In this document: piece after piece, positions 37,070 to 61,604 of the stretch
Position numbering within the stretch: position 1 is the stretch's first letter
Layout: every line of letters starts with the position of its first letter
NCBI GenBank assembly: GCA_034189125.1
Contig: JAXHVB010000018.1
Span: forward strand, 775 to 64,774
Length of the DNA stretch: 64,000 bases
From: Pseudomonadota bacterium
GTDB lineage: Bacteria > Pseudomonadota > Gammaproteobacteria > Pseudomonadales > UBA5862
Reading direction: 5' to 3'
Made by a program: the position numbers and the translations under genes
The notes under the pieces: model-generated
Told to the model about the DNA's origin: nothing
Seen by the model: only the letters and a program-made list of their open reading frames with translations
Database searches by the model: none

Positions 37070-37076
37070 GGCCGGC

Positions 37077-38000: not shown

Positions 38001-38013
38001 TGGGTATCAATCC

Positions 38014-41747: not shown

Positions 41748-41758
41748 TCGGTCCGTTG

Positions 41759-41776
41759 CACCGCCTGTTGGCGGTG
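41759..41776 (-). other. perfect intra-operon hairpin (7-bp stem, 4-nt loop) in the only 100-nt gap of the minus-strand GT block
   Basis: CACCGCC-TGTT-GGCGGTG at 41759-41776, between the GT4 stop (41848) and the GT2 start (41747). No U-tract follows on the transcribed strand, so it is not a classical terminator. Confidence 0.3.
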
Positions 41777-41847
41777 GATCGCGGGGTCGATCGATGCTTG
41801 GGTGCGGGCGCGATTTTCCCCCTCAGTGTAGCAGGCGGTCCGGGACA

Positions 41848-44930: not shown

Positions 44931-44938
44931 TCTCGGGG

Positions 44939-48116: not shown

Positions 48117-48130
48117 GACAGTCCGATGGA

Positions 48131-49468
48131 TTACTGGTGAGTACGCAGGCGCCAGAGGAGCTGGCGGTCCAGGCGTTGGCGAAGGCCGCGAACGGCGTAG
48201 CGCACTGGGCCCTGGCGAAAACGCACATAGGCTTCGCGCACCTGCGAGATGGCCTCTGGAGAGAGTTTTGCGGGTTGGCCACGAAACTCGTGTTCGGCCC
48301 AAAGGGCCGCGAGTTCGTCCACGAAGCGCGCCTGCTCGGCGCGCTCAAGGTAACTGCGGGCCTGCTGTTTTGCCCGGGCGCCGAGCGCTTCACGCAGGGC
48401 TCGGTTGGCGCCGAGCCGCAGCATCCAGGTCGCGGCGTGTTCGATGTCGGGTGCGGCCCAGGTGGCATTGCGCCCGGCGAAGTCCGGCGTGTAGCAGTCA
48501 AGTTCACCGTCCACGGTGCGGTGTCTGTAGGTCACCAGTGCGGCGCTTTGGTGGTCCATAAAGGAAAGGTTTCCGGACCAACCGGTGGCGATCACGGGTT
48601 TGCCGAGCGCCATGGCTTCAAGCATGCCAAGCCCGAGACCCTCCGCACTGTGCAGTGACACGAAGACATCGCAGTTGGCGTAGAGCGCCAGCACCTCGGG
48701 GTAGGGCAGGCGCGCGTCGACCAAGTGGACACCTGGCGCCTGGTTGCACCGGTCGATGACCTGTTGCGCCAGTGGGTGCACCTGTCCGTTGTGGCGGCTG
48801 TTGTTCAGCTTGACGACCAGGTTGGCTTCAAGCCCCTGCTCGCGGGCGCGCTCGAAGGCGTGGATGGCAGCGAAGGGGTTTTTCCTCCGAGGGTCGCTGG
48901 TCGGCTCCACGATGGTGACAAGCAGGGGGGTCTGCTCAGGCAATCCGAAATCGGCGCGGCGAACCGACGCTGCGGGCTCAACCTGCAGCGGGTGGGGGGC
49001 GTACACAACCGGCACCTGGTCCAGGTGGTTGCGCAAACTGCTCTCGATGAACCTTGACCCCGCAATGAGCGCATCGAACGTCTGCAGCGCGAGACGCCAG
49101 TGCCTCGGGATTTCATCCAGTTCCCACCAAAAAAATCCAACGTTGTAGCGGCTTTCGAACAGTGCTCGGTGCTCAAAGAGCAGTTCTGGTAGGGCGTTGA
49201 CGGGGAGAATGGCGAGGTTGATGGGGTGCGGCAGTTTATTTGCGTCCTCGCACAGCAAGTCGGCGTACTCGGTGTCGTGTCCGCCGCGGCCGAACCCCGG
49301 GTTCATGTCGTAGGCAGATACGGGGATCCCCCGGCTTTTCAGCACCCGGATGAAGTTTCGCGCCGTGACCCCCATTCCGGCGTTGGCGGTAACCATGCCG
49401 ATGAGATTCACCCCGGGGAGTCGCGGTTCGCTTGGGTTTGGGGTCAGCGGCGGATTCGCAGGGGCCAC
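48131..49468 (-). CDS. GT4-like glycosyltransferase
   Basis: GTG start at 49468. The C-terminal GT-B segment is VSLHSAEGLGLGMLEAMALGKPVIATGWSGN. Confidence 0.7.
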   Translation of the reverse strand: MAPANPPLTPNPSEPRLPGVNLIGMVTANAGMGVTARNFIRVLKSRGIPVSAYDMNPGFGRGGHDTEYADLLCEDANKLPHPINLAILPVNALPELLFEHRALFESRYNVGFFWWELDEIPRHWRLALQTFDALIAGSRFIESSLRNHLDQVPVVYAPHPLQVEPAASVRRADFGLPEQTPLLVTIVEPTSDPRRKNPFAAIHAFERAREQGLEANLVVKLNNSRHNGQVHPLAQQVIDRCNQAPGVHLVDARLPYPEVLALYANCDVFVSLHSAEGLGLGMLEAMALGKPVIATGWSGNLSFMDHQSAALVTYRHRTVDGELDCYTPDFAGRNATWAAPDIEHAATWMLRLGANRALREALGARAKQQARSYLERAEQARFVDELAALWAEHEFRGQPAKLSPEAISQVREAYVRFRQGPVRYAVRGLRQRLDRQLLWRLRTHQ

Positions 49469-49471
49469 CGG

Positions 49472-50728
49472 TCAATCCTGGTCCTGGTCGACTTGGGAGA
49501 GGGCCCATTCGGTCGGAAGCGGAACAAAGCCAAACTCCCCGTTGCGGGCCCGGCTCTGCCCGTCGGCGAAACCCACGGTCACTGGGCAGAGATTTTCGGC
49601 GTAGTACGCCATGCTCGGTGGACTTCCGTGGGAGACCGCGAGCCGAAATGAATACACCCCGGGAAGAAATGGAAAATGCTGCACGCGCGCGTGCATCCGG
49701 TAGTCTCCGGGCTCAAGTGTCCCCGGACTGAATTCGCCTTCGGTGTCGGTGCTCGCCAAGTACAGCAGGTCCGTGGTGTGGACGCCGAGCCCGACGATGA
49801 GGTTGTCCGTGGTTGCCCGGATTCGCAGGTCGATCGCGAGCCGGGTCGCCCCATCGTAGTCCACCTGATCGGTGGCCACGCCTTCGGCGTCCACCAATTT
49901 GACACCGAGAACCTGGATTTGATCGGCGTCGCCTCCGAGTTGGTTGTTGGCACCCTGGCGCGCGACCGATTGTTTGATTTTTTCGTCGCTGCGTTGATAG
50001 AACAGGTTGCACACAGTTCGCGCATCGTCGTCAGCCACGACCTGTCCCCTGTCCAGAAGGACGACGCGGCTGCACAGTCGCTCGACTTGCCGCAAGTTGT
50101 GGCTGACCAAAATCACCGTTTTGCCCTGTCTCTTGATCAGTTCTTCCATTCGGTCAAAGCATTTGCGCTGAAATGCAATGTCACCCACGGCGAGGACCTC
50201 ATCGACGATGAGGAGGTCGGCATCCATGGACGTCGCGATGGCGAAGCCAAGGCGTACCTGCATGCCCGAGCTGTAGCGCTTCACAGGGGTGTCGATGAAC
50301 TGTTCGATCTCAGCAAATTCAATGATGCCATCGAGTTGCTCGCGGGTGCGTGCCTTGGGAATTCCGAGGATGGCGCTGTTCAGAAAAATGTTTTCCCGGC
50401 CAGTGAGTTCTGGGTTGATCCCTGCGCCCACTTCGATCAATGGGGCAACACTGCCATGCACCGACACCGACCCGCTGGTGGGTTGAGTGATGTTGGCCAG
50501 GTGTTTCAGGAGAGTGCTCTTGCCCGCGCCGTTCGACCCGATGATGCCGACCACCTCTCCAGAGGAGATGTGCAGGTTGATGTCCTGCAAAGCATAAAAC
50601 CGCTCGCGCTCCTTCACCGGACGACCGCTGAGTTTTCCAAAGGCTCGGGCCGCGGTTCCACGAATTCCGGCAATCTGTCCGAGCCGGTACTCTTTGTAGA
50701 GGTGGTCCACCTCGACAATCGATGACAT
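49472..50728 (-). CDS. wzt: polysaccharide/O-antigen ABC exporter ATP-binding protein with ~170-aa C-terminal extension (Wzt-like)
   Basis: Walker A GSNGAGKST, signature YSSGMQVRL and Walker B LLIVDEVL. After about aa 245 there is a beta-rich extra domain (VLGVKLVDAEG, RLAIDLRIRA, YSFRLAVS), as in Wzt carbohydrate-binding domains. Confidence 0.9.
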   Translation of the reverse strand: MSSIVEVDHLYKEYRLGQIAGIRGTAARAFGKLSGRPVKERERFYALQDINLHISSGEVVGIIGSNGAGKSTLLKHLANITQPTSGSVSVHGSVAPLIEVGAGINPELTGRENIFLNSAILGIPKARTREQLDGIIEFAEIEQFIDTPVKRYSSGMQVRLGFAIATSMDADLLIVDEVLAVGDIAFQRKCFDRMEELIKRQGKTVILVSHNLRQVERLCSRVVLLDRGQVVADDDARTVCNLFYQRSDEKIKQSVARQGANNQLGGDADQIQVLGVKLVDAEGVATDQVDYDGATRLAIDLRIRATTDNLIVGLGVHTTDLLYLASTDTEGEFSPGTLEPGDYRMHARVQHFPFLPGVYSFRLAVSHGSPPSMAYYAENLCPVTVGFADGQSRARNGEFGFVPLPTEWALSQVDQDQD

Positions 50729-50742
50729 GGGCTGGAAGTCCT

Positions 50743-51561
50743 TCAGATGACGTCGGCGAACCAGGCTTCGGCACGCTTAAAGAAAAGATAGCTGAGCGGT
50801 AGCAGCAGCAGGGTCAGCACGAGCCCTGGAGACAAGGTGGACCAGTCCGGTGGCAGTCCTTTCAGAAGAACGCGCTGAAAGTTGTCGATGATGCCCGCCA
50901 GGGGGTTGCAGAGGTACAGCGTGTACAAGCGATCCGACCAGTCGCCGGCCGCTTGCTGTACCACGAGCTTCTCGCGCACCAGCGAAAGCGGATAGATGAC
51001 CGGCGAAGTGTACATCAACAGCGACAGCACGACGGGCAGCATTTGTCCGACGTCGCGGTAGTACACGTTCATCGCGGCGCCGAAAAAACTGACAACCAGC
51101 GCTACCAGCATGGTGTAGCCGATGATCAGTGGCACCCAGAGTGCCTGGGCTGTCGGCAGCATCTGGTAATAGACCATCATGGCGGCCAGGATGAGGAAGC
51201 TGATCGCGAGTTCTACCGTTTTGGTCACCATGGCGGTCAGCGGAAACACCTCCCGTGGGAAGTAGATCTTTTTGATCAGAGGGGCATTGCCGGTGACGCT
51301 GTTGATGCCTTCCGAGGCCGACTCCTGAAAGAAGATCCACGGCAGCAGTGCTGCAAAGGTAAGGATGGGATAGGGCACGTCGCCACTTTCAATGCCGACG
51401 AACCCTTTGACGACGGTAAAGATCAGCATGAGCACCACGGGTTTGAGCACCGCCCAGGCAATACCGAGGTACGCTTGCTTGTAGCGCACTGAGATGTTTT
51501 TCCACGCCAGTGCACCGATCAACTCTCGGTAGTGGTACAGCCCTTGAATCGATTTGATCAT
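50743..51561 (-). CDS. wzm: ABC-2-type polysaccharide exporter permease (Wzm-like)
   Basis: 272 aa with six hydrophobic helices. N-terminal YRELIGALAWKNISVRYKQAYLGIAWAVLKP is the typical ABC2_membrane/Wzm start. Confidence 0.85.
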   Translation of the reverse strand: MIKSIQGLYHYRELIGALAWKNISVRYKQAYLGIAWAVLKPVVLMLIFTVVKGFVGIESGDVPYPILTFAALLPWIFFQESASEGINSVTGNAPLIKKIYFPREVFPLTAMVTKTVELAISFLILAAMMVYYQMLPTAQALWVPLIIGYTMLVALVVSFFGAAMNVYYRDVGQMLPVVLSLLMYTSPVIYPLSLVREKLVVQQAAGDWSDRLYTLYLCNPLAGIIDNFQRVLLKGLPPDWSTLSPGLVLTLLLLPLSYLFFKRAEAWFADVI

Positions 51562-51647
51562 GGCCGGATCTCAGAGTCAGGCCTTGCAGCGGGTCCATGG
51601 CCCCAGGCTTCTGGAGGTGTGGCCGTTGAGTTCATTCGGAGAAATCC

Positions 51648-52676
51648 TTAGTCCCTGCTGTCGGTTGTCTTTCTGGGCATCGTGAGTGCATACCGCACTG
51701 CGAGCTTCAATTGGCTGACCGTGGCTCGGAGCCGAAAGGCTTGCCACAGGGCGGCCCAGCCATTTGCCCAGTCGTGTGTGCGCAGTTGATAGGCGCGGGT
51801 GAACAGCAGCTGCGATTGGTGGCGCCGCAGCGCCGATTCCCGTCTACGCCACGTTTGCTGTGTGTCGCGTACGGCCTCTAACAGGTTAGCACCTGCGAGA
51901 ATTTCGTTGTGCACCTGACGGCGCTGAGCCGCTGCGACGGACAGACCCTCGGGCCAGCCGAAATTCTTGCCGTGTATCCGCCAGTGGTTGATGGGGACGC
52001 GAGTGACCGCCAGCGCGCACAGCGCCGCGGCTTTCTTGGTCCAGGTGGATTCGCTGAACAGGCTGTATTCGTCGAACGGGCCGATGACATTCCAGGCGCC
52101 ACGGCGTGCGGCAGGTCGCTGAAAATCGATGGGTACCCGTGGGATCAGCGCATCGAACAGGCTGTGGTCGAACAGCCAGAGGGGCCCGCTTGGTCGAGGC
52201 GGGGCCGCCTGAAAGAGCGCATCCATCGCGGCCTTGCGGCTGGCGGCGGGTCCCTCAGCGTAGGGTCCAAAGGGTTCAACACCCATGAAGATACAGTCCA
52301 GGTGCGGGTGTGTGCTGAAGCCCTCGGCGATCACTTCCAGCGCGTCTTCGGTCAGCAGGTCGTCGTCGTCCAGCAACACAATGACTTCACCCTGCGCCGC
52401 GCGAATCCCCGCGTTCTTGGCGCTTGGGACCCCCAAGGCAGTTTGGTGGTGGATCAACTGAAGCGGGCCTGAAAACGTCCCCTCAATCGCCTGTCGGTCA
52501 ACGGGGGGGGAGGACCCGTCGTCCACCACAACCAACTCGACGGTGCCGAGTGTCTGGGCAGCAACGCTGGCCACGGCTTCGAGCAGCAGGTCCGCGCGGT
52601 TGTGGGTGGGAATGACGACAGAGATCAGCACCGCGATGCCCCGGCTGCTCCCGTCGCATTGTGCAGTGGTGTGCAT
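51648..52676 (-). CDS. GT2 glycosyltransferase
   Basis: Start at ATG 52676. Motifs ISVVIPTHNRADLLLEAVASVAAQT, LVVVDDGSSP and VLLDDDD. Confidence 0.8.
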   Translation of the reverse strand: MHTTAQCDGSSRGIAVLISVVIPTHNRADLLLEAVASVAAQTLGTVELVVVDDGSSPPVDRQAIEGTFSGPLQLIHHQTALGVPSAKNAGIRAAQGEVIVLLDDDDLLTEDALEVIAEGFSTHPHLDCIFMGVEPFGPYAEGPAASRKAAMDALFQAAPPRPSGPLWLFDHSLFDALIPRVPIDFQRPAARRGAWNVIGPFDEYSLFSESTWTKKAAALCALAVTRVPINHWRIHGKNFGWPEGLSVAAAQRRQVHNEILAGANLLEAVRDTQQTWRRRESALRRHQSQLLFTRAYQLRTHDWANGWAALWQAFRLRATVSQLKLAVRYALTMPRKTTDSRD

Positions 52677-52722
52677 GGGCCCTGGTGGAGGCTTCGGTGT
52701 TGTGGCGTTTGTCTGGGGTGCA

Positions 52723-53526
52723 TCAGTCGAACCAGCGGACCCGAGCTGGCAACTGGGTTTGCGCCAAAGCACCAGCCTTCAGGGCCTGCGCCAGCCGGCG
52801 TTCGGCCCGCCATGTGCGGTCCCTGACTTGGTACAGCGTGCCTTTTTCGGTTTGCGCCTGCCCCAAGGGCTGGGAGGCACCCAGCCGCTCCAGGACTTCG
52901 GTATAGGCCGTGGCGCTGTCGCGCACGGCGCGCCAGAAGAGTTCCAGTTCAGTGTCGTTCGGGCGCACTTCAGGGCAGACATGGGCGATGAGGTCGCCGG
53001 TGTCGATTCCTGCATTGATGAAGTGCAGCGTGCAGCCCACCTGCTCCGGCTCGCCATTGTGCAAGGCCCAGAACGTGCAATCCGCACCGCGGTAGTGGGG
53101 CGAGAGACCGCCGTGGAGGTTCACGATCCCCAGCCGGCCGAGGGTGAGCAAGTCGCCTTTGATGAGGGATGTGCCGAACACTGCGATCAGGTCCGGGTCC
53201 AGGGCGCGAATGCGTTCAACCAGGTCCGGGTGGTTGATGTGCGGAACACCCACCCGCAAATCGGGCCGGTTAAGTGCCGGAGAGGTATTGGGGAAGAAGA
53301 ACTCGGCTTCGGCGTTGCCGGTGTAGCGCCGCCGATCGCGCAGCCAGCGCCACGCCTTGCGGCCGAGGCTCGCGGGCTTGAGTTTCTTGCGCAGGGCAGG
53401 CCAGTCCAGGGCCGTGCCGGTCTCCTGCACAATGGCCTGGACATCGGCGTGTTCGCACAGCCGATTCGCCACGTACAGGTGGCGCGGCGCCTGACCGCAG
53501 AGAATCACCAAACGCAGTTCAGCCAT
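52723..53526 (-). CDS. formyltransferase-family protein (Fmt/PurN-like N-terminal fold only)
   Basis: IVNLHGGLSPHYRGAD carries the Asn-x-His catalytic pair, with the SLLPxxRG-type loop diverged to LSPHYRG, and GIDTGDLI carries the catalytic Asp. At 267 aa there is no C-terminal tRNA-binding domain. Confidence 0.75.
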   Translation of the reverse strand: MAELRLVILCGQAPRHLYVANRLCEHADVQAIVQETGTALDWPALRKKLKPASLGRKAWRWLRDRRRYTGNAEAEFFFPNTSPALNRPDLRVGVPHINHPDLVERIRALDPDLIAVFGTSLIKGDLLTLGRLGIVNLHGGLSPHYRGADCTFWALHNGEPEQVGCTLHFINAGIDTGDLIAHVCPEVRPNDTELELFWRAVRDSATAYTEVLERLGASQPLGQAQTEKGTLYQVRDRTWRAERRLAQALKAGALAQTQLPARVRWFD

Positions 53527-54709
53527 GCTTGCCCTCGGTGCCCTGCAGGCGGTTGTCGAGCATCAGCGCGTCGGCAAAGAACTTGGCCGCCCAGTTGGGA
53601 AATTCGAACCGCGAATAGTCTCCCCAGAAGGGTGCGGAACCGGCAATGGCGCCGTCGTCAAAGCGCCCGTCGCCGGTGCGACGTTGGTGGCGCTTGAGGT
53701 AGTCGAGCCCGCGGTCGACGGCGTCCTGGAAGGTCTGGTTGGCACGCCGCTCGATCAACCTGGACCAAATGATGCACATCTGAGCCAGCCCGGTCAGGCA
53801 CACGTAGTTGGCGCGCGGGCGCCATTGGTCATCCAGGGTGCCCGCGAGTGCACCGTTCTGAGGAAGGGCAGCGGCGACCGCGACCGCACTGCGCTCTGCG
53901 GCCGAGATCAGGTGGGTATCCTCCAGCAGCAGGCCCGATTCCAGCACTCCACGAATCGCATAGGCGATGGTGTGGGTAAAGGGAACGGCGCCGACTGTGA
54001 AGGCGTTGTTCGCGAACCAGCCTGCCGGGTTTTGCTGACTGAGTGCCCAGGCGAGGTTGCGCTTGGCGCCTTCAATCAGGGCGGGCTCTCCGGCCAGTAG
54101 TCCAGTTTGCAGCAGTGCCCAGGCGGCTCTGGTGTTGTAGGTGTGCGCAATTCCGTTGTGCACCGAGCGGCGCCAGCAGCCGTCTTCATCCTGCTGCGCG
54201 AGCATCCAGCGCCCGGCGCGCACCGCGGCGTCCAGGCAGCCCTGGTGCTGGAGTTGCCGATGGCCATGGTTCAGGCCATGCATGATCTGTCCGGTGTTGA
54301 AAATCACCGGTCGGCTGCCCGGCTCGCCGAAGTGGCCGGGGAATGCGCCGTCTGCATGCTGCAGGCTCAGCTCCCAGTCGAGGATTCTGCGCGCCCGCTC
54401 AACCAGATTCGGTCGATCGAGTACCTCGGCTGCCTGCAAGAAGGTTTCGACAATGTAGCCACTGGTTTCCGGATAGCTTGGCAGCCAACCGTCTTCGAAA
54501 CTCCATCCGGCGGATACACCGCCCTCATCGGCGCAGCCCTGACGCACGTCTTGAGCGCGACACAACCAATCGATTGCTGCGATCAAGTGGGGCAGGTGTT
54601 GTGGATCTGCCTTGTTGTCGATTTTCAGGGCGCTTTGCGCAATGAGGCCCAAATGCACCGGAGACCAAAGGCGGTAACGCAGCGGAGCCTGTACGATTTT
54701 CTTCAGCAT
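53519..54709 (-). CDS. prenyltransferase/squalene-oxidase-repeat-like (alpha/alpha)6-toroid protein
   Basis: Repeated QW-type motifs LQHADGAFPG, AQQDEDGCWRR and SQQNPAGWFAN are spaced ~50 aa apart. Helix-rich; no signal peptide. Confidence 0.6.
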   Translation of the reverse strand: MLKKIVQAPLRYRLWSPVHLGLIAQSALKIDNKADPQHLPHLIAAIDWLCRAQDVRQGCADEGGVSAGWSFEDGWLPSYPETSGYIVETFLQAAEVLDRPNLVERARRILDWELSLQHADGAFPGHFGEPGSRPVIFNTGQIMHGLNHGHRQLQHQGCLDAAVRAGRWMLAQQDEDGCWRRSVHNGIAHTYNTRAAWALLQTGLLAGEPALIEGAKRNLAWALSQQNPAGWFANNAFTVGAVPFTHTIAYAIRGVLESGLLLEDTHLISAAERSAVAVAAALPQNGALAGTLDDQWRPRANYVCLTGLAQMCIIWSRLIERRANQTFQDAVDRGLDYLKRHQRRTGDGRFDDGAIAGSAPFWGDYSRFEFPNWAAKFFADALMLDNRLQGTEGKHG

Positions 54710-54742
54710 AAGGGGCGCGGCTTGTGGCTAAGGAAGTTCAAT

Positions 54743-56137
54743 TCAAGAGGCGCTTGTGGTGGATTCAGCGGTGGGAATGGCCACTTGGCTGACCACGTAG
54801 CGGTACTTCCCGGAAGCTTCGGCCTTGATCTGGTCAAGGTAGCAGATTTCCACATCCACTCGTTCGTCCAGGCGCCTGTGGATCTCTGATCGCAGGCGTT
54901 GCTCTTGCTCTTGGCGTGCCCGGTTCCAGGTTTCGTTGACCACCAGCTCAACGGTCAGGCGATCGATGTCGTGCTGCAGGATACGGAACTCAGCAACTCC
55001 GTCCAGTGCCCTGACCACGTAGATGAGTGCCAGAGCGTGCATGATGGTGCCGTCTCGACGCACAATGAAGTCGGTCTGGCGCCCAGCCACCTCTTCGATC
55101 ACGTGAAGGCCACGCCCGGCCGAGCAGGGCGCAGACCCCAGCCGCACCATGTCACCGGTGCGGTAGCGAACAAATGGTTGGGCATTGGAGCACAGTCCAG
55201 TCATGACAGCTTCTCCGAGTTCACCGTTCGCAACGGGATTTCCCTGCGGGTCCAGCACTTCGAGGACGATGCTTTCACTCATGAGTAGCATTTGCCCCTG
55301 TGGAGATTCATGGGCGGTGAAGCCGATGTCTCTACTGCCGAATTCATTGGCGACCGGAGCCTGAAAACACGACTGGATCAAGGAGCGCTGTTGGGGGTCC
55401 AAAGGCTCGCCTGTGGTGCAGACCACCTTGAGGTCAGGCAGATGCAGCTGGACGCCGCGGTTCTCTGCGTGCGCTGCGATCAGAGCCAAGCTGCTGGCGT
55501 ACCCATAGATGCAGTGGGGTCGGTAGCGCCCGATCGCGTCCAGGTACTCGTCCATGGCTGCGACGGACATCTCGAATGCATTGAGGACCAGCTGGTTGAG
55601 AGCGCGGTCTCGGAGTTGTTTCACGCGGTCGGTTTTGTTGAGTTCAACCGGTGCACCCCACAGGTATACCTCACGTTCTCCAGGCTGCACGCCCCACCAG
55701 CGCCGCGCCCGCATGCGACCCGCGGCATCGGATGCTTGGCGTTGGCGGCCAAAGTAAAAAATCAATGGCTGACCGGACGAGCCGCCAGTGTTGTACTTTT
55801 GGCTTCCCCCGGGCACCTTGGGCCAGTGAAGACCTTCACGGTTTTCGTTGGCTTCGGCCTTGGTCATGGTGGGCAGCAGCTTGAGTTGTTCGATGGAAAA
55901 GTCGTTGATCGCTCCAGGGTTGGACAACCCAGCCTGTTCGAGCCGGGCTCGATGCCATGGGCAGTGGTGCCAGGCGGTGTCGAGCAGGGCCTGCAATTTT
56001 CTGCTTTGCAGGTCCTCGATCTCCTGTCTTGCCCACCACTGACTGGATTCAAGCTCGCGCAAATAGCCGAAAGTCGGCCGCTTCATTGCCCATTCGTGGA
56101 GCGGGTAGAACAGGCTGCGCGCAACCAGGGCCTTCAT
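54743..56137 (-). CDS. CapK / phenylacetate-CoA-ligase / F390-synthetase-like adenylate-forming enzyme
   Basis: Start at ATG 56137 (Met77 of the track ORF). N-terminus LFYPLHEWAMKR, LESSQWW with the AMP-binding loop YNTGGSSGQPLIFYF and RYRTGDMV, typical of the PaaK/CapK clade. Confidence 0.75.
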   Translation of the reverse strand: MKALVARSLFYPLHEWAMKRPTFGYLRELESSQWWARQEIEDLQSRKLQALLDTAWHHCPWHRARLEQAGLSNPGAINDFSIEQLKLLPTMTKAEANENREGLHWPKVPGGSQKYNTGGSSGQPLIFYFGRQRQASDAAGRMRARRWWGVQPGEREVYLWGAPVELNKTDRVKQLRDRALNQLVLNAFEMSVAAMDEYLDAIGRYRPHCIYGYASSLALIAAHAENRGVQLHLPDLKVVCTTGEPLDPQQRSLIQSCFQAPVANEFGSRDIGFTAHESPQGQMLLMSESIVLEVLDPQGNPVANGELGEAVMTGLCSNAQPFVRYRTGDMVRLGSAPCSAGRGLHVIEEVAGRQTDFIVRRDGTIMHALALIYVVRALDGVAEFRILQHDIDRLTVELVVNETWNRARQEQEQRLRSEIHRRLDERVDVEICYLDQIKAEASGKYRYVVSQVAIPTAESTTSAS

Positions 56138-56344
56138 TCCTGGGTCGCCGTGACGAGGCCAACGCCGCCGCGCGACGGGTTGGATCCTCGTTGCCAAGGT
56201 GTGGACAGCGGGAGAACGAAAGAAGGCATGCGGTGAGTTCCAAGCGGCTACAAGTGACCGGTCATCGGCGGCCGGGTTGCGTGGCAGCGGGTTCGGTGTG
56301 TCTGGGTGTCCCCATAAAAATAGTAGAAGCTCGCGCCCCTCGGC

Positions 56345-56350
56345 TATAGT
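56345..56350 (+). promoter_or_regulatory. candidate -10 hexamer (TATAGT) inside the AT-rich divergent promoter region 56138-56382
   Basis: TATAGT at 56345-56350 lies 33 nt upstream of the ATG at 56383. No convincing -35 at 17-bp spacing. A perfect TATAAT also reads on the minus strand at 56365-56370. Confidence 0.25.
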
Positions 56351-56382
56351 TGCATGGCTTTTCAATTATATCTGCAGAGTGT

Positions 56383-58215
56383 ATGCGAGAGATGTCCCCT
56401 AGGGTGCCGAGTGGGTTGTTTGTCCGGTGTTTGTCCGCCGATGCGCAGGTGCAAGCGGCGCCAGTTGCTGGCTTTGGCAGCGGTTGGGAACACCAGCAGG
56501 TGGGGCCCTTGGCCCTGTGGTCGAAGGCTGGGCTTGGTGACCGCGTCGAGTACCATCAGGATCCAGAAACCGGAATGCTGGCGCTGGTCTTTGGCCGTTG
56601 GGAAGTTCCTGGGCGGTCAGCCTCCCTGCAGCGTTGGTTCGCGGCCCATCAACAGGAGCCGAAAGCCGCTTTCAGGGCGCTCAGCGGCCGGTTCATTGCG
56701 CTCTTACATGATCCGCGCAGTGCCAGGGTGTGGGTGGCAACGGACCGCTTTGCAACCGTACCGCTGAGCCATCGCACCACGCCCGAGGGGTTGGAGCTCG
56801 CGACCGACCCTGGGCTGTTCCCGAGTTCGGGTTCGGTGCCCTTGGCTCTTTGTCCGCAGGCATTGTACGAGTACCTGTACTTTCACATGGTGCCGGCCCC
56901 AAGGTCGATCTACGCTGGGGTGTCCAAGCTCGGCCCTGCCCAGCAACTCCGTTGGGAGCAAGGGGCGCAGGAGGCCCAGGTGGAGGGTTATTGGATGCCG
57001 CGCTTTGAGGATCAGCCCCATGGGCGTGACCGATCCAATATGGAAGCGGCGCTCAGGTCGCACCTGGCGGAAGCTGTGCGCGCCAGCGCCTCCACTTGCA
57101 GCGCCGCTTTTTTGAGTGGTGGGCTTGACAGTTCCACCACCACTGGGCTGCTCGCCCAGGCGCGTGATGGCGACGTGGATGCCTTCTCGGTTGGCTTCGA
57201 GGCCGAAGGCTACGACGAGATGCCCTACGCGCGCATCGCTGCGCAGCACTTTGGCGTGCGCCACCACGAACTCTATCTTTCACCTGCCGACGTCGTCCGC
57301 CTGGTTCCTGAGGTGGCGGCATGCTACGGCGAGCCGTTTGGCAACTCTTCCGCGGTGCCTACGTTGTTCTGCGCGCAACAGGCCGCAGCGGCGGGCCACG
57401 GCGAGTTGATGGCTGGAGACGGAGGCGACGAGTTGTTCGCCGGCAATGAACGCTATGCCACTCAGGCCCTGTTCGAGCACTACGCTCGCTTGCCTCGCGG
57501 TGTCCGTGCCCTGGTCGACACCACGGACCGGTGCCTGAGTCCGGTTGCGAGCCATTGGCCGGTAAGCAAGCTGCGCCGGTATGTCGAACAGGCCCGGGTT
57601 CCTTTGCCGGACCGGCTGCAGGGCTACAACAATTTTCATATGCAGAGTGCTGCAGCCATTCTGCATCCGGACCTGCTCGGTCAGGTCGACCTGGATGCCC
57701 CGCTGAAATTGCTGCGGTCGGTGTATGCAGGTGCGGCTGCACAGACCAGCCTGCAGCGCATGCTGTGGCTGGATTGGAAGCAAACCCTGGCCGACAACGA
57801 CCTGCGCAAAGTCACCCAAATGACCCAGGCTGCCGGCGTGCGTGTCTGCTATCCGATGTTGGCTGAACCGGTGGTGGAGTTGGCCACCGAGATCCCGCCG
57901 CAATGGCTGTTGCCAAAGCGGCGGTTGCGGGACTTCTACAAGCGCGTCTACGCTGATTTTTTACCCCCAGCGATCCTGACCAAACCCAAGCACGGGTTCG
58001 GTTTGCCCTTTGGGGTTTGGCTCCAGACCGACCCGGGCCTTGGTGTCCTCGCCGGGGATGCTCTGGAGGGGCTGAAGGCCCGCAACATCGTGCACCCCGA
58101 CCACCTTGACCGTTTGCTGAAGCAACACGCCGCGGACCATGCAGCGTATTACGGGGAGCAGATTTGGGTGCTGATGATGTTGGAGCTGTGGCTGCAGGCC
58201 CATGGACACAGATAA
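56383..58215 (+). CDS. asparagine-synthase-family ATP-dependent amide ligase lacking the N-terminal Cys nucleophile
   Basis: Possible starts are TTG 56350, ATG 56383 and ATG 56392; none yields Met-Cys. A remnant glutaminase-like domain (FIALLHDPRSARVWVATDRFATVPL), an intact PP-loop AFLSGGLDSS and C-terminal KPKHGFGLP are present. Confidence 0.8.
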   Translation: MREMSPRVPSGLFVRCLSADAQVQAAPVAGFGSGWEHQQVGPLALWSKAGLGDRVEYHQDPETGMLALVFGRWEVPGRSASLQRWFAAHQQEPKAAFRALSGRFIALLHDPRSARVWVATDRFATVPLSHRTTPEGLELATDPGLFPSSGSVPLALCPQALYEYLYFHMVPAPRSIYAGVSKLGPAQQLRWEQGAQEAQVEGYWMPRFEDQPHGRDRSNMEAALRSHLAEAVRASASTCSAAFLSGGLDSSTTTGLLAQARDGDVDAFSVGFEAEGYDEMPYARIAAQHFGVRHHELYLSPADVVRLVPEVAACYGEPFGNSSAVPTLFCAQQAAAAGHGELMAGDGGDELFAGNERYATQALFEHYARLPRGVRALVDTTDRCLSPVASHWPVSKLRRYVEQARVPLPDRLQGYNNFHMQSAAAILHPDLLGQVDLDAPLKLLRSVYAGAAAQTSLQRMLWLDWKQTLADNDLRKVTQMTQAAGVRVCYPMLAEPVVELATEIPPQWLLPKRRLRDFYKRVYADFLPPAILTKPKHGFGLPFGVWLQTDPGLGVLAGDALEGLKARNIVHPDHLDRLLKQHAADHAAYYGEQIWVLMMLELWLQAHGHR

Positions 58216-58228
58216 GCAGGAGGCATCA

Positions 58229-59023
58229 ATGATCCAGTTGGCAGGTCCGAAGCGTCGCATCTCCATGTGGCTGGGCGCGCTCACAATTTGGATCGTCGCT
58301 TTGCTTCCGGTGTTCGCTGGCGCGTCGGAACTGGCCGACACAGTCGCCCGCGTCAAGGGGTCGGTGGTTGGCATCGGCACCCACCAGCCGACTGGGCGGC
58401 CACCGTCCCGATTGCTGGGAACCGGCTTTGTGGTTGGCAATGGCTTGCAGGTCATCACCAACGCGCATGTGCTGCCTGCCTCGCTGGACACTGAGCGGTT
58501 TGAAACGCTGGTTGTGTTCATTGGGTCCGGGGAGTCGCCGACGGCTCGCCCCGTGGAGATCAGGACGGTGGACCGCGACCACGATGTCGCGCTGCTTGGT
58601 ATCAAGGGGCAGGCGTTGCCGGCGCTGCAGCTCGGCGACTCGGAGCGGGTCAGAGAGGGTGAGCTTTATGCCTTTACCGGCTTTCCGATCGGTGCCGTGC
58701 TGGGGCTGTACCCGGCCACGCACCAGGGCCTGATCGCGAGCATTACGCCGGTGGCCATCCCTCAAGTTTCCCTGCGTGGGCTCGACGTGAACATGCTGCG
58801 CCGACTCCAGGACCCATACGAAGTGTTCCAGCTCGATGCCACTGCCTACCCGGGCAGTTCGGGCAGCCCTCTGTACCATCCAAAGACCGGTCGGGTGGTG
58901 GGCGTGATCAACAAGGTGTTCGTGCAGGGGACCAAGGAGTCCGCACTCGAGCGGCCAAGTGGCATCACCTACGCGATCCCCGTGCGACACGTGCGCCAGC
59001 TGCTTGAGGTGGACAGCCCCTAG
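58229..59023 (+). CDS. secreted trypsin-like (S1/DegP-core) serine protease without PDZ domain
   Basis: AGGAGG at 58218-58223 lies 5 nt before the ATG at 58229. Signal/TM WLGALTIWIVALLPVFAGA. Triad contexts VITNAHV (His), DHDVALLGI (Asp) and GSSGSPLY (Ser). Confidence 0.8.
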   Translation: MIQLAGPKRRISMWLGALTIWIVALLPVFAGASELADTVARVKGSVVGIGTHQPTGRPPSRLLGTGFVVGNGLQVITNAHVLPASLDTERFETLVVFIGSGESPTARPVEIRTVDRDHDVALLGIKGQALPALQLGDSERVREGELYAFTGFPIGAVLGLYPATHQGLIASITPVAIPQVSLRGLDVNMLRRLQDPYEVFQLDATAYPGSSGSPLYHPKTGRVVGVINKVFVQGTKESALERPSGITYAIPVRHVRQLLEVDSP

Positions 59024-59118: not shown

Positions 59119-60126
59119 TCAGACCTGGTAATAGTCCCGGTACCAGTCCACGAAGCGCGCGATCCCGGTTTCGATGGGGGTGGCCGGGCGGTAGCCGGTG
59201 TCGTTCATCAGGTCGTCCACATTCGCATAGGTGTCGGGCACGTCGCCGGGTTGCATCGGCAGCAGTTCTTTGCTGGCGCGTCGACCGAGGCAGTCTTCCA
59301 ACACTTCGATGTAGCGCAGCAGCTCGACCGGCCGGTTGCTGCCGATGTTATACAGCCGATAGGGCGCCAGGCTTGTTCCGGGGTCGGGGCTGTCTCCGGA
59401 CCATGCGGTATTGGGTGTGGCGACCTGGTCGAGGGTGCGAACCACGCCTTCGACGATGTCATCGACATAGGTGAAGTCGCGGCGGTGGTGGCCATGGTTG
59501 AACACCTGAATGGGCTCGCCGGCAAGAATCTTTTTGGTGAAGATGAACAGCGCCATGTCGGGCCGTCCCCAGGGCCCGTACACGGTGAAGAAGCGCAGTC
59601 CAGTGGTGGGGAGCTGGTACAGGTGGCTGTAGGTGTGGGCCATCAGCTCATTGGCTTTCTTGGTCGCCGCGTACAGGCTGACCGGGTGGTCGACGTTGTC
59701 GTGGATGGAGAACGGCATGTCTGTGTTCGCGCCGTACACCGAGCTGCTTGAAGCGTACACAAGGTGTTCCACGTCCGAGTGTCGGGCACCTTCGAGGACG
59801 TTGAGAAATCCCACCAGGTTTGCATCAGCGTAGGTGTGCGGATGCGTGATCGAGTAGCGGACCCCAGCCTGGGCCGCGAGGTGAACGATGCGCTGCGGTT
59901 GGCAGCGCGCGATCGTTTCCTGCATCGCCTGACGGTCGGCGATGTCGATTTCCGTGAGCTCGAAGCCTGTGCGGCCGGACAAGCGCGCGACCCTGGCCCG
60001 TTTCAGGTCCGGGCTGTAGTAGTCGTTCAGGTTGTCGATGCCGAGCACCTGGTCGCCGCGGTCCAACAGGCGCTGGGTGAGCGCCGCTCCGATGAACCCG
60101 GCAGCCCCGGTTACGAGAATGCGCAT
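59119..60126 (-). CDS. NAD-dependent UDP-glucuronate 4-epimerase-like SDR (CapI/WbnF type)
   Basis: MRILVTGAAGFIGAAL, GIDNLNDYYSPDLKRARV, SSSSVYG and YAATKKANE (YxxxK). Confidence 0.85.
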   Translation of the reverse strand: MRILVTGAAGFIGAALTQRLLDRGDQVLGIDNLNDYYSPDLKRARVARLSGRTGFELTEIDIADRQAMQETIARCQPQRIVHLAAQAGVRYSITHPHTYADANLVGFLNVLEGARHSDVEHLVYASSSSVYGANTDMPFSIHDNVDHPVSLYAATKKANELMAHTYSHLYQLPTTGLRFFTVYGPWGRPDMALFIFTKKILAGEPIQVFNHGHHRRDFTYVDDIVEGVVRTLDQVATPNTAWSGDSPDPGTSLAPYRLYNIGSNRPVELLRYIEVLEDCLGRRASKELLPMQPGDVPDTYANVDDLMNDTGYRPATPIETGIARFVDWYRDYYQV

Positions 60127-60177: not shown

Positions 60178-61455
60178 TCAGAGCCGTGCATCCACCGCCT
60201 CCTTGGGCAAGAGTGACTTGACGTCGAACACCACGTGGCTGGGTTTGCCGAGCGCGTGAATGCCGTTGGCGCCGAGGTCCACGAACTGGCGGTGCGCCAC
60301 GGCGATGATGATGGCGTCGTAGGTTTGCTCCGGACGCTCGGTGTGGACGCGGATCCCGTATTCATGTTCGGCCTGGTCGGGATCGATCCATGGGTCGTAC
60401 ACATCGACCTGCACGTTGTATCCCTGTAGAGCTTCAATGATGTCGATCACGCGCGTGTTGCGAATGTCAGGGCAATTCTCCTTAAAGGCCAAACCCAGCA
60501 CCAGGACTTTGGAGTCGACCACCTGGATTCGCTTGCGGGTCATCAGCTTCACGACCCGCTCGGTCACATAGATGCCCATGTTGTCGTTGATGCGCCGACC
60601 CGCCAGGATGACCTCGGGGTGGTAGCCGAGTTCTTGGGCCTTGTGGGTCAGGTAGTACGGATCGACACTGATGCAATGACCGCCAACCAGGCCGGGCTTG
60701 AAGGGCAAAAAGTTCCATTTGGTGCCGGCCGCAGCCAGAACGTCCTCGGTGTCGATCTCCAACCGGGCAAAAATCGTAGCCAACTCGTTGATCAGGGCAA
60801 TGTTCAGATCGCGCTGGGTGTTCTCGATCACCTTGGCGGCTTCGGCGACTTTGATGCTCGCAGCCCGGTGGGTCCCCGCAGTGATGATGCGTGCGTACAG
60901 CCGATCGACAAAGTCAGCGGCCTCCGGTGTGGACCCTGAGGTGACTTTCATGATTCCTGGAAGCCGGTGCTGCTTATCGCCGGGATTGATGCGTTCGGGG
61001 CTATAGCCGACGAAAAAGTCCCGGTTGAAGGTGAGCCCGGAGCCTTGCTCCAGGAGAGGGACGCAGACCTCTTCGGTGGCTCCCGGGTACACAGTGGACT
61101 CGAACACCACCACATTGCCGGGTTTGAGTACCTGCGCGATGGTGGAGGCCGCAGCACGCAACGGTCCCAGGTCGGGCTGGCGGTGCCGGTCGATGGGCGT
61201 TGGGACTGTGACGACATACACTGAGCACAGTGACAAGTCTTGCTGGTCGGCTGAGAACCGCAGTCCGGAGTTCAACTGCAGTTCACTGCTGTCGACTTCC
61301 AGCGTTCGGTCTTCGCCGCGCCTCAGCTCCTCAACCCGCGAGCGGTCGATGTCGAAACCGAGGGTCGGGAACTGCTTGCCGAATTCAACAGCGAGTGGCA
61401 GGCCAACGTACCCGAGGCCGATCACGCCGATCGAACAGCCGTCCAGGTCGAGCAT
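60178..61455 (-). CDS. UDP-N-acetyl-hexosamine 6-dehydrogenase family (TviB/WbpO/CapL-like nucleotide-sugar dehydrogenase)
   Basis: Start at ATG 61455 (Met106 of the track ORF). Motifs [54 protein letters not shown] and [13 protein letters not shown]. Confidence 0.85.
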
Positions 61456-61545
61456 GGGGGAGGTTCCTTGTAACTGTTGCGTCAATGATGCGGAGGCAGA
61501 CTGGGTCTGTCTCGGGTGTCCACGCCGAATTGATGGACTCACCAC

Positions 61546-61551
61546 TATAAT
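61546..61551 (+). promoter_or_regulatory. candidate -10 hexamer (perfect TATAAT) for the priming-transferase gene
   Basis: TATAAT at 61546-61551 lies 54 nt upstream of the GTG at 61605, and RBS CAGGAGAG sits at 61588. The only TTG-containing hexamer (TTGATG, 61530) is 10 nt away, so the -35 is poor. Confidence 0.3.
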
Positions 61552-61604
61552 AGAAGGCATTCCTTGCCCTGACCATTCTGAGCCCTGCAGGAGAGACCGG
61601 TTCC

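Follow-up and report, generated by a model that had tools for sequence, protein, structure and literature searches.

Gene organization of the locus

As shown in Table 1, three adjoining minus-strand genes in the window (the whole 64,000-nucleotide stretch of DNA that was analysed) encode a CapK/PaaK-like ligase, an (alpha/alpha)6 toroid protein and a protein of the formyltransferase (FT) fold. The three ORFs and their motifs, described in an earlier note on this DNA, were all confirmed, as was the 8-nt overlap of the toroid and FT genes. The longest ORF of the ligase gene extends to 56365 (a TTG start), and the 464-residue form is the version with a match of 100% identity in public data (P0121; L001). 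All three proteins are soluble and cytoplasmic in character, with neither a transmembrane segment nor a signal peptide. Tight spacing of the genes between 56137 and 33893 is compatible with the single minus-strand operon proposed earlier; no clear consensus of a promoter or terminator was seen. It was also found, in agreement with the earlier note, that the window has two deacetylase genes and that the approximately 50 ORFs scanned (a few left-end ORFs lay outside the scan) include no aminotransferase, carrier protein or isoprenoid enzyme.

Table 1. Features of the window discussed in the text.
Feature	Position	Strand	Size, contents or evidence
Canonical XrtA/PEP-CTERM exopolysaccharide locus, complete	6720-31115	+	NCBIfam equivalog matches above cut-offs; in order: export protein, chain-length determinant, Tyr kinase, OMP, ATPase, WecB, deacetylase, FemAB-like, stp1, XrtA-EpsI, RmlA/B, stp2, AsnB, stp3, GT4, O-ligase-like, sulfotransferase, unknown 389-aa protein
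Deacetylase	13882-14781
GT4	26359-27681
O-ligase-like gene	27694-29007
Rest of the operon behind the trio	33893-52772	-	Pfam and NCBIfam scans, ORF spacing; GT2, Wzm, Wzt, GT4, FkbM methyltransferase, WbsX, GT2, unknown 773-aa protein, GT4, GT2, PgaB/IcaB-like deacetylase, GT2, sulfotransferase, unknown 307-aa protein, GT2-sulfatase fusion
Deacetylase	39997-40770
FT-fold protein, stand-alone (third trio gene)	52723-53526	-	267 aa
(alpha/alpha)6 toroid protein (second trio gene)	53519-54709	-	396 aa
CapK/PaaK-like adenylate-forming ligase, ANL superfamily (first trio gene)	54743-56137	-	464 aa
AsnB-like amide synthetase, truncated (AsnB_short)	56350-58215	+	divergent from the trio
SDR epimerase	59119-60126	-	weak TviC-like match, 120 bits
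TviB-like UDP-GlcNAc 6-dehydrogenase	60178-61770	-	NF011729 TviB, 590.2 bits (cut-off 592)

The TviB-like dehydrogenase and the SDR epimerase beyond the trio are likely suppliers of a HexNAc-uronic acid. AsnB_short matches Pfam Asn_synthase (6.9e-70) over residues 235-616 only and has no recognisable N-terminal glutaminase start. It is 44% identical to an Azoarcus AsnB_short gene which lies just past the trio and the O-ligase gene, and about 10 of the 49 large loci in the tabulation have a comparable gene.

A trio displaced from an XrtA/PEP-CTERM locus

The plus-strand locus at 6.7-31 kb carries the full signature-family set of the XrtA/PEP-CTERM system (Haft et al. 2006, PMC1569441), namely the NCBIfam equivalogs TIGR03027, 03007, 03018, 03016, 03015, 03006, 03019, 03087, 03109, 03088, 03108, 04063 and 03097. 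The earlier note did not recognise it, despite the part of the window that it fills. About 33 of the 49 large loci are of this type, with the trio between the GT4 gene and the O-ligase-like gene. In the window this slot is empty, and the trio and the truncated AsnB-like gene have been relocated to 52.7-58.2 kb. Thus, the earlier placing of the trio at the head of an operon is true locally but describes a local rearrangement, the canonical site being inside the XrtA/PEP-CTERM locus. Although most genomes have the trio inside such a locus, it is found outside XrtA loci too. The founding paper (PMC1569441) makes no mention of formyl, CoA ligase, cyclase or F390, and no NCBIfam model matches any of the three trio proteins at or above its cut-off.

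Conservation and gene fusions

Is the trio common elsewhere? Linkage was counted in loci from 80 species-representative genomes. The FT gene follows the toroid gene in all 77 testable loci, with a gap of 81 nt or less in 52 of 52; a CapK-like ligase gene precedes the toroid gene in 66 of 70, and the full trio is present in 64 of 68. Median identities are 60, 61 and 62%. Where the cassette is interrupted, the inserted genes are for the most part of toxin-antitoxin or mobile type, with a single GT4 gene besides, and three loci (L130, L133 and L143) have the permuted order toroid-FT-CapK. In one case (L086) the cassette stands alone among housekeeping genes, with no glycan genes nearby, and in another (L087) it lies among Arn-like genes (GT2, GtrA, PMT_2 and a deacetylase).

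Matches to a fusion of toroid and FT number at least 1588 proteins, with the N/H/D triad intact; the toroid and FT are therefore the tighter pair. The fusion genes adjoin AsnB-like amide synthetases, deacetylases (as in L088 and L089), WecB and UDP-sugar dehydrogenases. In most cases no CapK-like gene lies beside them; the core function thus does not require the ligase. In every variant, the toroid is accompanied by an ATP-dependent carboxylate-amine ligase of the ANL, AsnB-like or ATP-grasp type. Only 2 of 58 loci have WecB and the dehydrogenase at most 10 kb away from the proteobacterial trio; both are commoner, though not universal, beside the fused and the more distant toroid relatives, and haloarchaeal relatives adjoin wecB and a nucleotide-sugar dehydrogenase. 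With the full trios and the fusions, the three families decidedly do occur together outside the window. The trio is a conserved, uncharacterised cassette that accompanies slime-polysaccharide clusters in hundreds of environmental bacteria.

Relatives of the three proteins

The ligase has the motifs TGGSSGQP (117), TTGEP (241), YRTGD (325) and SGKYRY (442), and 51 orthologues show no change in its P-loop, hinge and A10 lysine motifs. The nearest enzymes of known structure are AjiA1, the PaaK-like ligase 6SIW and the BagE/FevW family (AjiA1 and PaaK-like ligases in the PDB, E 4.6e-21 to 4e-20; for the whole group about 1e-21 to 1e-20), which share the adenylation motifs and the A10 lysine. These PaaK-type ANL enzymes hand the acyl-adenylate straight to a nucleophile without CoA. 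In contrast to these enzymes of aromatic acids and natural-product pathways, the window ligase belongs to polysaccharide loci and, by precomputed assignment, to a separate Pfam family (PF27533, CapK_C). PaaK itself was rejected as its identity, as the NCBIfam PaaK-type equivalog, with a cut-off of 700 bits, gives a score of 105.

The FT matches Pfam Formyl_trans_N (1.2e-18; 68 bits, cut-off 26.1). Residues N136, H138 and D175 of its N136-L-H138...D175 triad are invariant in 60 orthologues and kept in the fused relatives. Among solved structures, those most closely related to it are WbkC, PurN, Fmt and the formyltransferase domain of ArnA. This last, a sugar-nucleotide N-formyltransferase, is the closest in sequence and structure (34-37% identity over about 115-140 residues), although the score against the ArnA equivalog is 74.9 bits (cut-off 777). 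The FT shares the Formyl_trans_N fold, the Asn-His-Asp triad and an HxxLxPxYRG-type motif with the N-terminal domain of ArnA, WbkC, WlaRD and PseJ. Unlike these, it has no C-terminal Formyl_trans_C or dehydrogenase domain, carries an unusual insertion of about 60 residues in its N-terminal half, has no partner aminotransferase among the ORFs scanned in the window, and is obligatorily paired or fused with the toroid protein. Its structure model is poor (pLDDT 60.6).

The toroid protein matches Pfam SQHop_cyclase_C (8.1e-14). Four QxxxGx(W/F) motifs were counted, not the three QW-type repeats reported before, and the likeness to squalene-hopene cyclase consists of these motifs only. A terpene cyclase was rejected: the protein is a single 396-residue barrel with no DxDD motif, and scores 37.5 bits against 322.7 required by the squalene cyclase model. 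The AF2 model (pLDDT 90.8) gives GH88, cellobiose 2-epimerase/AGE (including 3WKF), GH76 and GH105 as top Foldseek matches (TM 0.60-0.70, probability 1.0). The overall fold is thus that of (alpha/alpha)6 carbohydrate enzymes such as GH88 unsaturated glucuronyl hydrolase, but sequence identity is only 10-16%, and those enzymes are mostly degradative or act on free sugars, whereas the toroid is found in biosynthetic loci. A profile search collected 2875 cluster representatives at E<=1e-3; the toroid is a member of a large glycan-locus superfamily. Its relatives are fused to FT, WecG/TagA GT26, GT4, GT2 and LicD domains, and to aminoglycoside-type N-acetyltransferases, methyltransferases and ATP-grasp ligases. 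Pfam matches of these relatives to C5-epim_C, Pec_lyase and GH88 are confined to one hairpin motif of about 50 residues.

Comparison with VpsH and VpsJ of Vibrio cholerae

The closest studied analogues of the ligase and the toroid appear to be VpsH and VpsJ, likened here by description. VpsH, compared by its authors with CapK-like proteins and acyl-CoA ligases, is the only such protein studied genetically; it is needed for a glycine amide on the uronic-acid residue (L-GulNAcA) of a lipid-linked disaccharide, and carboxylate activation was suggested (PMC13463779). VpsJ is required ahead of any tailoring, and its loss leaves the disaccharide wholly unmodified; it was proposed to be a ManNAcA C5-epimerase and compared with 3WKF, the structure also matched by the toroid in Foldseek (PMC13463779). 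It was reported to resemble aspartate-semialdehyde dehydrogenases as well (PMC13463779), so its fold may differ from the toroid.

Like the trio, the VPS system combines a ligase likened to CapK-like proteins and acyl-CoA ligases with a protein resembling a sugar 2-epimerase, in an exopolysaccharide locus that also makes a HexNAc-uronic acid (with VpsA, VpsB and VpsK as its WecB/WecC/WecG-like module). In both, action on the cytoplasmic side is shown or inferred, and the order VpsK then VpsJ is mirrored by the fusion of toroid relatives to WecG-type transferases. On the other hand, VPS has no formyltransferase, but an O-acetyltransferase (VpsG), and is a Wzx/Wzy locus without an exosortase.

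Proposed function and alternatives

I lean, by a little, towards the view that the trio is one functional cassette which tailors an exopolysaccharide precursor in the cytoplasm, in which the toroid and FT are the obligate core and the CapK-like ligase usually joins them as third partner in Proteobacteria. Its most likely task is to modify an acidic amino sugar ahead of polymer export. Being soluble and without signal peptides, the three proteins should act on lipid-linked or nucleotide-linked precursors, not on exported polymer.

The substrate, order of steps and toroid chemistry may be envisaged as follows. WecB and the TviB-like enzymes of the locus would make a 2-acetamido-uronic acid (GlcNAcA, GalNAcA or ManNAcA-derived), carried on an undecaprenyl-diphosphate-linked repeat unit. 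The toroid would bind the uronic residue and either epimerise it, as proposed for VpsJ, or present it to the two soluble enzymes. The ligase would adenylate a carboxylate with ATP and couple it to an amine or amino acid as an amide, in the way inferred for VpsH. The FT would transfer a formyl group from N10-formyl-tetrahydrofolate to a free amino group, either a sugar amine freed by a locus deacetylase, which is a plausible source, or the distal amine on the substituent that was added. If the amide partner is a simple amino acid, the FT is left without an amine; thus, the two reactions may be unrelated modifications. Also against the proposal are the rarity of WecB and the dehydrogenase near the proteobacterial trio, the usual absence of a CapK-like gene beside toroid-FT fusions and the lone cassette of L086.

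It is possible that the toroid is a scaffold or adaptor. A non-enzymatic toroid would bind the lipid tail or head group of the undecaprenyl-diphosphate-linked glycan and draw soluble tailoring enzymes and glycosyltransferases towards this substrate at the membrane, leaving all chemistry to the ligase and FT. The fusions to so many unrelated enzymes of lipid-linked glycans suggest this, as does the QW-motif similarity to polyisoprenoid-binding toroids; the unmodified disaccharide of the VpsJ mutant (PMC13463779) would fit too, mass spectrometry being blind to whether an epimerase or an adaptor was lost. However, the toroid keeps about 60% identity between proteobacterial classes, and over 100 of its residues are invariant, with many His, Asp, Glu, Arg, Tyr or Trp among them; such a pattern suits an active site better than a groove for lipid. 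With carbohydrate enzymes rather than prenyltransferases as the best structural matches and no membrane-association signal, I regard a purely adaptor role as rather unlikely.

Does the cassette instead modify soluble UDP-HexNAcA, for example to a UDP-2-formamido-uronic acid or amide that a glycosyltransferase then incorporates? The closest characterised FTs (ArnA and WbkC) act on nucleotide sugars, and the trio can stand apart from glycosyltransferases or among Arn-like genes, as noted above. In contrast, the glycosyltransferase fusions, especially to WecG-type enzymes with lipid-linked acceptors, suggest tailoring after transfer, the VpsH/VpsJ precedent concerns lipid-linked intermediates (PMC13463779), and no aminotransferase is among the neighbour families recurring with the trio. 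A nucleotide-sugar route therefore seems improbable.

The earlier interpretation was partly borne out: an uncharacterised glycan-tailoring unit is supported. Its mechanism, which I find equally doubtful, held that deacetylases expose polymer amines, of which some are N-acylated by the ligase via the adenylate of a small organic or amino acid and others are formylated by the FT, the toroid serving as scaffold. The two deacetylases of the window, those beside toroid-FT fusions and the CoA independence of AjiA1 and 6SIW speak for it, but exported polymer is out of reach of soluble cytoplasmic proteins, and the conserved core has no carrier protein or acid-supplying gene. Moreover, the VpsH case has the reverse polarity, a glycine amide on a uronic-acid carboxylate, and its authors favour carboxylate activation over acylation of a sugar amine (PMC13463779).

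A non-glycan role in terpenoid, aromatic acyl-CoA or other secondary metabolism is suggested by generic database names (terpene cyclase/mutase, phenylacetate-CoA ligase) and the SQHop_cyclase_C match only; phenylacetate activation and prenylation or terpene cyclisation had rightly been dismissed before, and such a role is effectively refuted by the genomic context, in which no isoprenoid or paa genes were found and the neighbours in annotated loci, bar the stand-alone trio of L086, are polysaccharide genes.

Conservation of the trio as a unit

The earlier note had described three minus-strand ORFs encoding a CapK/PaaK-like ligase, a QW-repeat toroid, and a formyltransferase (FT). All three ORFs exist, and the 8-nt overlap between the toroid and FT genes was confirmed. 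The ligase start that gives 464 residues is the version occurring elsewhere at 100% identity. Is the trio kept together in other genomes? The possibility raised in that note, that the three genes might never co-occur elsewhere, was clearly dispelled. Toroid homologues number more than 3100 at about 60% identity and occur in very different bacteria, and relatives turned up in 274 species when one genome per species was scanned. Nitrosococcus wardiae, Azoarcus sp. CIB (toroid AzCIB_3681), and a Desulfobacula MAG have the same three families in identical order; the trio is also present in Methylotuvimicrobium buryatense 5G and Marichromatium gracile DSM 203. Co-occurrence was counted in the best 80 of the loci from the 274 species, using only loci with enough sequence. 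Among these, FT follows the toroid in all 77 loci, the CapK-like ligase precedes the toroid in 66 of 70, and the complete trio is present in 64 of 68 (median identities 60, 61, and 62%). The gap from toroid to FT is 81 nt at most.

Interruptions of the cassette mostly bring in toxin-antitoxin or other mobile-type genes; one insert is a GT4 gene. At the homologous loci L035 (6111-7555), L078 (4986-7779), L071 (8126-9993), and L065 (9418-9798), the insertions lie between cassette genes and leave the three ORFs undamaged; they carry genes of toxin-antitoxin type (PIN/VapC-like and nucleotidyltransferase/HEPN-like), a GIY-YIG-like gene, and a GT4 gene. In metagenome contigs L130, L133, and L143, the order is permuted to toroid-FT-CapK, with a ligase about 61% identical to that of the window. 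Thus, the cassette has been kept together despite rearrangement. One gammaproteobacterial genome has the trio alone, with housekeeping genes on both sides. Loci L012, L027, L037, and L041 have a toroid-FT pair and no CapK-like gene within 10 kb upstream. The sole CapK-like gene of L027 is a paralogue of 26% identity that lies on the other strand. At L012, pepA-holC comes before the pair, and genes for a TPR and a heparinase II/III-like protein come after it.

The ligase and the formyltransferase

The ligase motifs TGGSSGQP (residue 117), TTGEP (241), YRTGD (325), and SGKYRY (442) are invariant in 51 orthologues; the motif classes checked were the P-loop T/S-G-x-x-G, TGE, the hinge (Y)RTGD, and the A10 catalytic lysine. 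In a phmmer search against the PDB, the best solved relatives were AjiA1 (E 4.6e-21), a PaaK-like ligase (4e-20), and PaaK (1.1e-17), and the precomputed Pfam family is PF27533 (CapK_C). From its sequence, the ligase is assigned to the PaaK/CapK branch of the adenylate-forming ANL superfamily. It was rejected as a phenylacetate-CoA ligase PaaK equivalog (NF041878, 105.1 bits against a cut-off of 700; TIGR02155, 68.6 against 646.3), and neither the window nor the annotated loci yielded paa genes.

The FT matches Pfam Formyl_trans_N with 68 bits (gathering score 26.1, E 1.2e-18); no Pfam match to a C-terminal Formyl_trans_C domain was found. Residues N136, H138, and D175 and the segment NLHGGLSPHYRG, which has the folate-site motif HxxLxPxxRG, are invariant in 60 orthologues and 21 fused relatives. 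The HGGLSPxYRG motif, Asn-x-His, and Asp are likewise unchanged across orthologues from other genomes. The FT is classed as a member of the Formyl_trans_N family, and its predicted activity is formyl transfer from N10-formyl-tetrahydrofolate to an amine. The closest solved relative is the ArnA formyltransferase domain. Equivalence to ArnA, Fmt, or PurN was rejected on scores of 74.9, 52.1, and 50 bits against cut-offs of 777, 201.5, and 150.1, respectively. The structure model of the FT was poor (pLDDT 60.6, from an alignment built with fused relatives), and its fold matches added nothing beyond the sequence search.

The modelled toroid has a carbohydrate-enzyme fold

The toroid matches Pfam SQHop_cyclase_C over residues 91-252 (51.8 bits against 26.1, E 8.1e-14) and carries four QW-like QxxxGx(W/F) motifs. 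Its AlphaFold2 model, based on 26 homologues in the alignment, was confident (pLDDT 90.8, pTM 0.91) and is a single (alpha/alpha)6 barrel of 396 residues. The best solved Foldseek matches were a heparin-specific unsaturated glucuronyl hydrolase (GH88), AGE cellobiose 2-epimerases including 3WKF, GH76, and GH105 (TM 0.60-0.70, probability 1.0, identity 10-16%). The modelled toroid thus shares the (alpha/alpha)6 carbohydrate-active barrel fold of GH88, AGE, GH76, and GH105.

The toroid is not a terpene cyclase. It has a single barrel against a two-barrel architecture of about 630 residues, lacks DxDD, and scores 37.5 bits with TIGR01787 against a cut-off of 322.7; searched against the PDB, its profile reaches squalene-hopene cyclase solely via the QW segments (E 1e-3). 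Matches of toroid relatives to Pfam C5-epim_C, Pec_lyase, GH88, and LANC_like were down-weighted as signs of a uronate C5-epimerase, because all of them span one hairpin of about 50 residues. The E-x-C/CC and C-H-G motifs of a GH127-like or LanC-like zinc site are not visible in the toroid sequence.

The toroid superfamily and its fusions

The toroid profile was searched against cluster representatives at 50% identity, in which the orthologous group collapses to one entry. The search gave 2875 representatives at E<=1e-3, of which 962 reached E<=1e-30; Proteobacteria, Desulfobacterota, Gemmatimonadota, and haloarchaea were all seen to have family members. Among the best 150 relatives, 26 are multidomain. 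These include four with a C-terminal Formyl_trans_N domain, in the same order as in the operon; fusions to glycosyltransferases (three WecG/TagA/CpsF of GT26, six GT4, and two GT2); two with an N-terminal ATP-grasp ligase-like domain (one clear match and one weak); and single cases with an aminoglycoside-type N-acetyltransferase, a SAM methyltransferase, and a LicD domain.

The toroid-FT fusion family has at least 1588 proteins at E<=1e-20, including some from Gemmatimonadaceae, and the N/H/D triad is intact in the fusions. In the top 120, nearly all are 600-730 residues in length, Formyl_trans_N is precomputed in 120 of 120, and a toroid-type Pfam in about 100. From the invariable adjacency, the translational coupling, and the widespread fusion, it follows that the toroid and FT are likely to work together physically.

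Neighbours of the fusion genes are AsnB-like amide synthetases (on both sides in locus L089), deacetylases, a hexapeptide acyltransferase, sulfotransferases, and PEP-CTERM-type export genes. Neighbours in the metagenome loci were tallied by clustering plus Pfam, since blast by itself was insensitive to divergent FT domains. In the 83 metagenomic and fusion-context loci clustered, in which fused and unfused toroid genes are mixed, the commonest recurring non-cassette neighbour families include UDP-GlcNAc 2-epimerase (WecB, 11 loci) and UDP-sugar dehydrogenase (7 loci). On haloarchaeal megaplasmids, 39%-identical toroids lie beside a sulfatase, an alginate-lyase-family protein, wecB, and a nucleotide-sugar dehydrogenase. 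These data indicate that the toroid is a glycan-pathway module associated with enzymes acting on lipid-linked intermediates, and that it recurs with enzymes making ManNAcA or HexNAcA.

The XrtA locus and the position of the trio

In about 33 of 49 long-flank loci, the trio lies within a canonical XrtA locus, in the order XrtA ... amidotransferase, stp3, GT4, [trio], O-ligase-like gene. The canonical slot is often followed by a reversed AsnB_short (a truncated AsnB-like amide synthetase gene), a sulfotransferase, and an uncharacterised protein of about 420 residues. In 20 of the 49 large loci, XrtA is no farther than 10 kb from the trio. In methanotrophs, the trio neighbours a sulfotransferase, a TPR protein, a flippase, an AsnB-like gene, or a heparinase II/III-like gene. 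In another genome, it is beside Arn-like genes (GT2, GtrA, PMT_2, deacetylase).

The trio of the window had been taken for the head of an isolated 22-kb operon. That description has to be amended: a complete XrtA/PEP-CTERM locus is also present. Most of its genes score above curated cut-offs, and these matches place exosortase A and its signature partner families in one locus. The usual slot of the trio is empty, as the GT4 gene adjoins the O-ligase-like gene. The trio and AsnB_short have been relocated to 52.7-58.2 kb, still side by side. AsnB_short diverges from the trio. Since it starts with MHGF and not MCG, it is probably without glutaminase activity. Right of the trypsin-like protease are an SDR epimerase, a TviB-like UDP-GlcNAc 6-dehydrogenase (590 bits, just under the cut-off of 592), and a TIGR03013 priming transferase. 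From this gene content, a sulfated, partly de-N-acetylated polymer with 2-acetamido-uronic acids is expected. A promoter and terminator scan and a sigma-54 pattern search around 56138-56349 gave nothing above chance.

Table. Positions of the trio and other features in the window
Feature	Position	Strand	Remarks
HAE3/MMPL-type RND transporter	2595-4895	-	weak similarity to hopanoid transporter HpnN; just outside the EPS locus
XrtA/PEP-CTERM locus, complete	6.7-31 kb	+	
XrtA locus, first part	from 6.7 kb	+	in order: export protein, chain-length determinant, tyrosine autokinase, outer-membrane protein, ATPase, WecB, XrtA-system deacetylase, FemAB-like, stp1
XrtA locus, second part	to 31 kb	+	in order: exosortase A with EpsI, RmlA/RmlB, stp2, XrtA amidotransferase, stp3, GT4, O-ligase-like TIGR03097, sulfotransferase, protein without family
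Passing TIGR models	6720-29007		thirteen equivalog/subfamily models
RmlA and RmlB	18499-22047	+	dTDP-glucose pathway; between exosortase A and stp2, locus otherwise canonical
GT4 gene	26359-27681	+	
O-ligase-like gene	at 27694	+	
Sulfotransferase and 389-aa protein	29020-31115	+	conserved pair; 389-aa protein without family match
ORF of 493 aa	32077-33558	-	no Pfam/NCBIfam match; in or beside minus operon
GT2-sulfatase fusion	33893-37069	-	1058 aa; N-terminal GT2 and sulfatase/alkaline-phosphatase-superfamily domain
ORF of 307 aa	37077-38000	-	no Pfam/NCBIfam match; in or beside minus operon
ORF of 773 aa	43017-45338	-	no Pfam/NCBIfam match; in or beside minus operon
Operon behind trio		-	glycosyltransferases, Wzm/Wzt ABC exporter, FkbM methyltransferase, WbsX, second deacetylase, second sulfotransferase, GT2-sulfatase fusion
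FT	52723-53526	-	267 aa
Toroid	53519-54709	-	396 aa
Ligase	54743-56137	-	464 aa
AsnB_short	56350-58215	+	Asn_synthase match from residue 235 onward only
Trypsin-like serine protease	58202-59023	+	start overlaps AsnB_short end by 14 nt
TIGR03013 match	61605-63005		
NTP_transf_5 "uncharacterised nucleotidyltransferase"	63019-63996	-	Pfam 3.6e-51; right edge, adjoins TIGR03013 priming transferase

Proposed function of the cassette

The vibrio polysaccharide (VPS) of V. cholerae was the one relevant experimental system found in the literature. There, VpsA, VpsB, and VpsK (WecB/WecC/WecG-like) install ManNAcA on lipid-linked glucose (mBio 2026, PMC13463779). VpsJ (VC0926) resembles sugar 2-epimerases, was compared with 3WKF, is needed before any tailoring, and was proposed to perform C5 epimerisation; the glycine amide on the L-GulNAcA so formed depends on VpsH (VC0924), which was likened to acyl-CoA ligases and CapK-like proteins (PMC13463779). 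The likeness of VpsH and VpsJ to the ligase and toroid of the window is drawn from these published descriptions. No Vps-specific NCBIfam model matched the ligase or the toroid, even at E<=10.

An ATP-dependent carboxylate-amine ligase accompanies every variant of the cassette, as the data indicate. In Proteobacteria this is the CapK-like enzyme of the ANL superfamily, the fusion genes have AsnB-like enzymes as neighbours, and other toroids carry an ATP-grasp domain in the same chain. All three trio proteins are without a hydrophobic segment or a signal peptide. It is quite probable that the trio is a cytoplasmic glycan-tailoring cassette with a toroid-FT core. As for the chemistry, the ligase would amidate the carboxylate of a uronic acid by analogy with VpsH, the toroid would epimerise, or present, that uronic-acid residue by analogy with VpsJ, and the FT would formylate a free amine, either the de-N-acetylated C2 amine or a distal amine of the attached group. 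These specific assignments are tentative, and I would put their chance at somewhat below even. When the general claim and the specific chemistry are combined, the proposal is slightly favoured.

The toroid may instead be an adaptor that merely docks soluble enzymes onto a polyprenyl-linked glycan. This would explain the promiscuous toroid fusions well, and the VpsJ genetics would agree with it, since epimerisation escapes detection by mass spectrometry. However, the orthologue alignment of the toroid has more than 100 invariant residues, many of them polar, which argue for catalysis, as do its structural neighbours among carbohydrate enzymes. The ArnA-like FT, and the trio that stands alone in one genome, would suit a nucleotide-sugar route; the toroid-glycosyltransferase fusions do not. 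The transfer of an acyl-adenylate to polymer amines, as the earlier note proposed, is weakened by the cytoplasmic location of the trio and by the opposite polarity inferred for VpsH. A terpenoid or phenylacetate role is excluded, as motifs, scores, and context are all against it.

A still wider reading of the tailoring cassette is speculative and, in my estimate, rather unlikely. The toroid defines a large unrecognised family, which on this reading would be a new class of enzyme or adaptor acting on lipid-linked uronic-acid sugars and physically docking soluble tailoring enzymes. Together with the FT and an amide ligase that uses ATP, it would make a uronic acid that is both N-formylated and amide-substituted, and VpsJ would be a distant member of the family. 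If true, such a sugar is one not yet described in the EPS of floc-forming, methanotrophic, and nitrifying bacteria.

Novelty of the module

EPS tailoring enzymes are a known kind of system; the three-part module and the toroid superfamily are not known. No description of the trio was found in the literature with exosortase, PEP-CTERM, or floc combined with formyltransferase, ligase, or squalene terms, and no curated NCBIfam model reaches its cut-off for the ligase, the toroid, or the FT. In public databases, the proteins go under generic names that mislead ("terpene cyclase/mutase", "phenylacetate-CoA ligase family", "PurN"). Correct annotation would keep the trio genes out of the terpenoid and phenylacetate tallies of metagenome surveys.

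XrtA/PEP-CTERM polysaccharides give cohesion to activated-sludge flocs, granules, and many environmental biofilms, and their chemistry is almost unknown. The identity of about 60% that the three-gene cassette retains across bacterial classes, with a partner family extending into Archaea, is a sign of a sugar modification that is specific, widespread, and as yet unassigned. For a large family at present mislabelled "terpene cyclase/prenyltransferase", the toroid fusions with FT, WecG, glycosyltransferase, and ATP-grasp domains supply a hypothesis that is concrete and testable. In their light, the recent VpsJ genetics of V. cholerae may also be read in a second way.

Other genes of the window

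Several further genes are listed in the Table. The sulfotransferase and the 389-aa protein are 55% and 39% identical to Nitrosococcus genes, respectively; among the 49 large loci, homologues of the 389-aa protein are present in 20 and of the sulfotransferase in 11. Besides the GT2-sulfatase fusion of the window, a "sulfatase" gene is located directly upstream of the haloarchaeal toroid genes in loci L171 and L172. The long RmlA and RmlB ORFs overlap adjacent genes; thus, their true starts are probably further downstream. The 493-aa ORF may be an antisense artefact, because a plus-strand GT4-like tblastn match lies in the interval.
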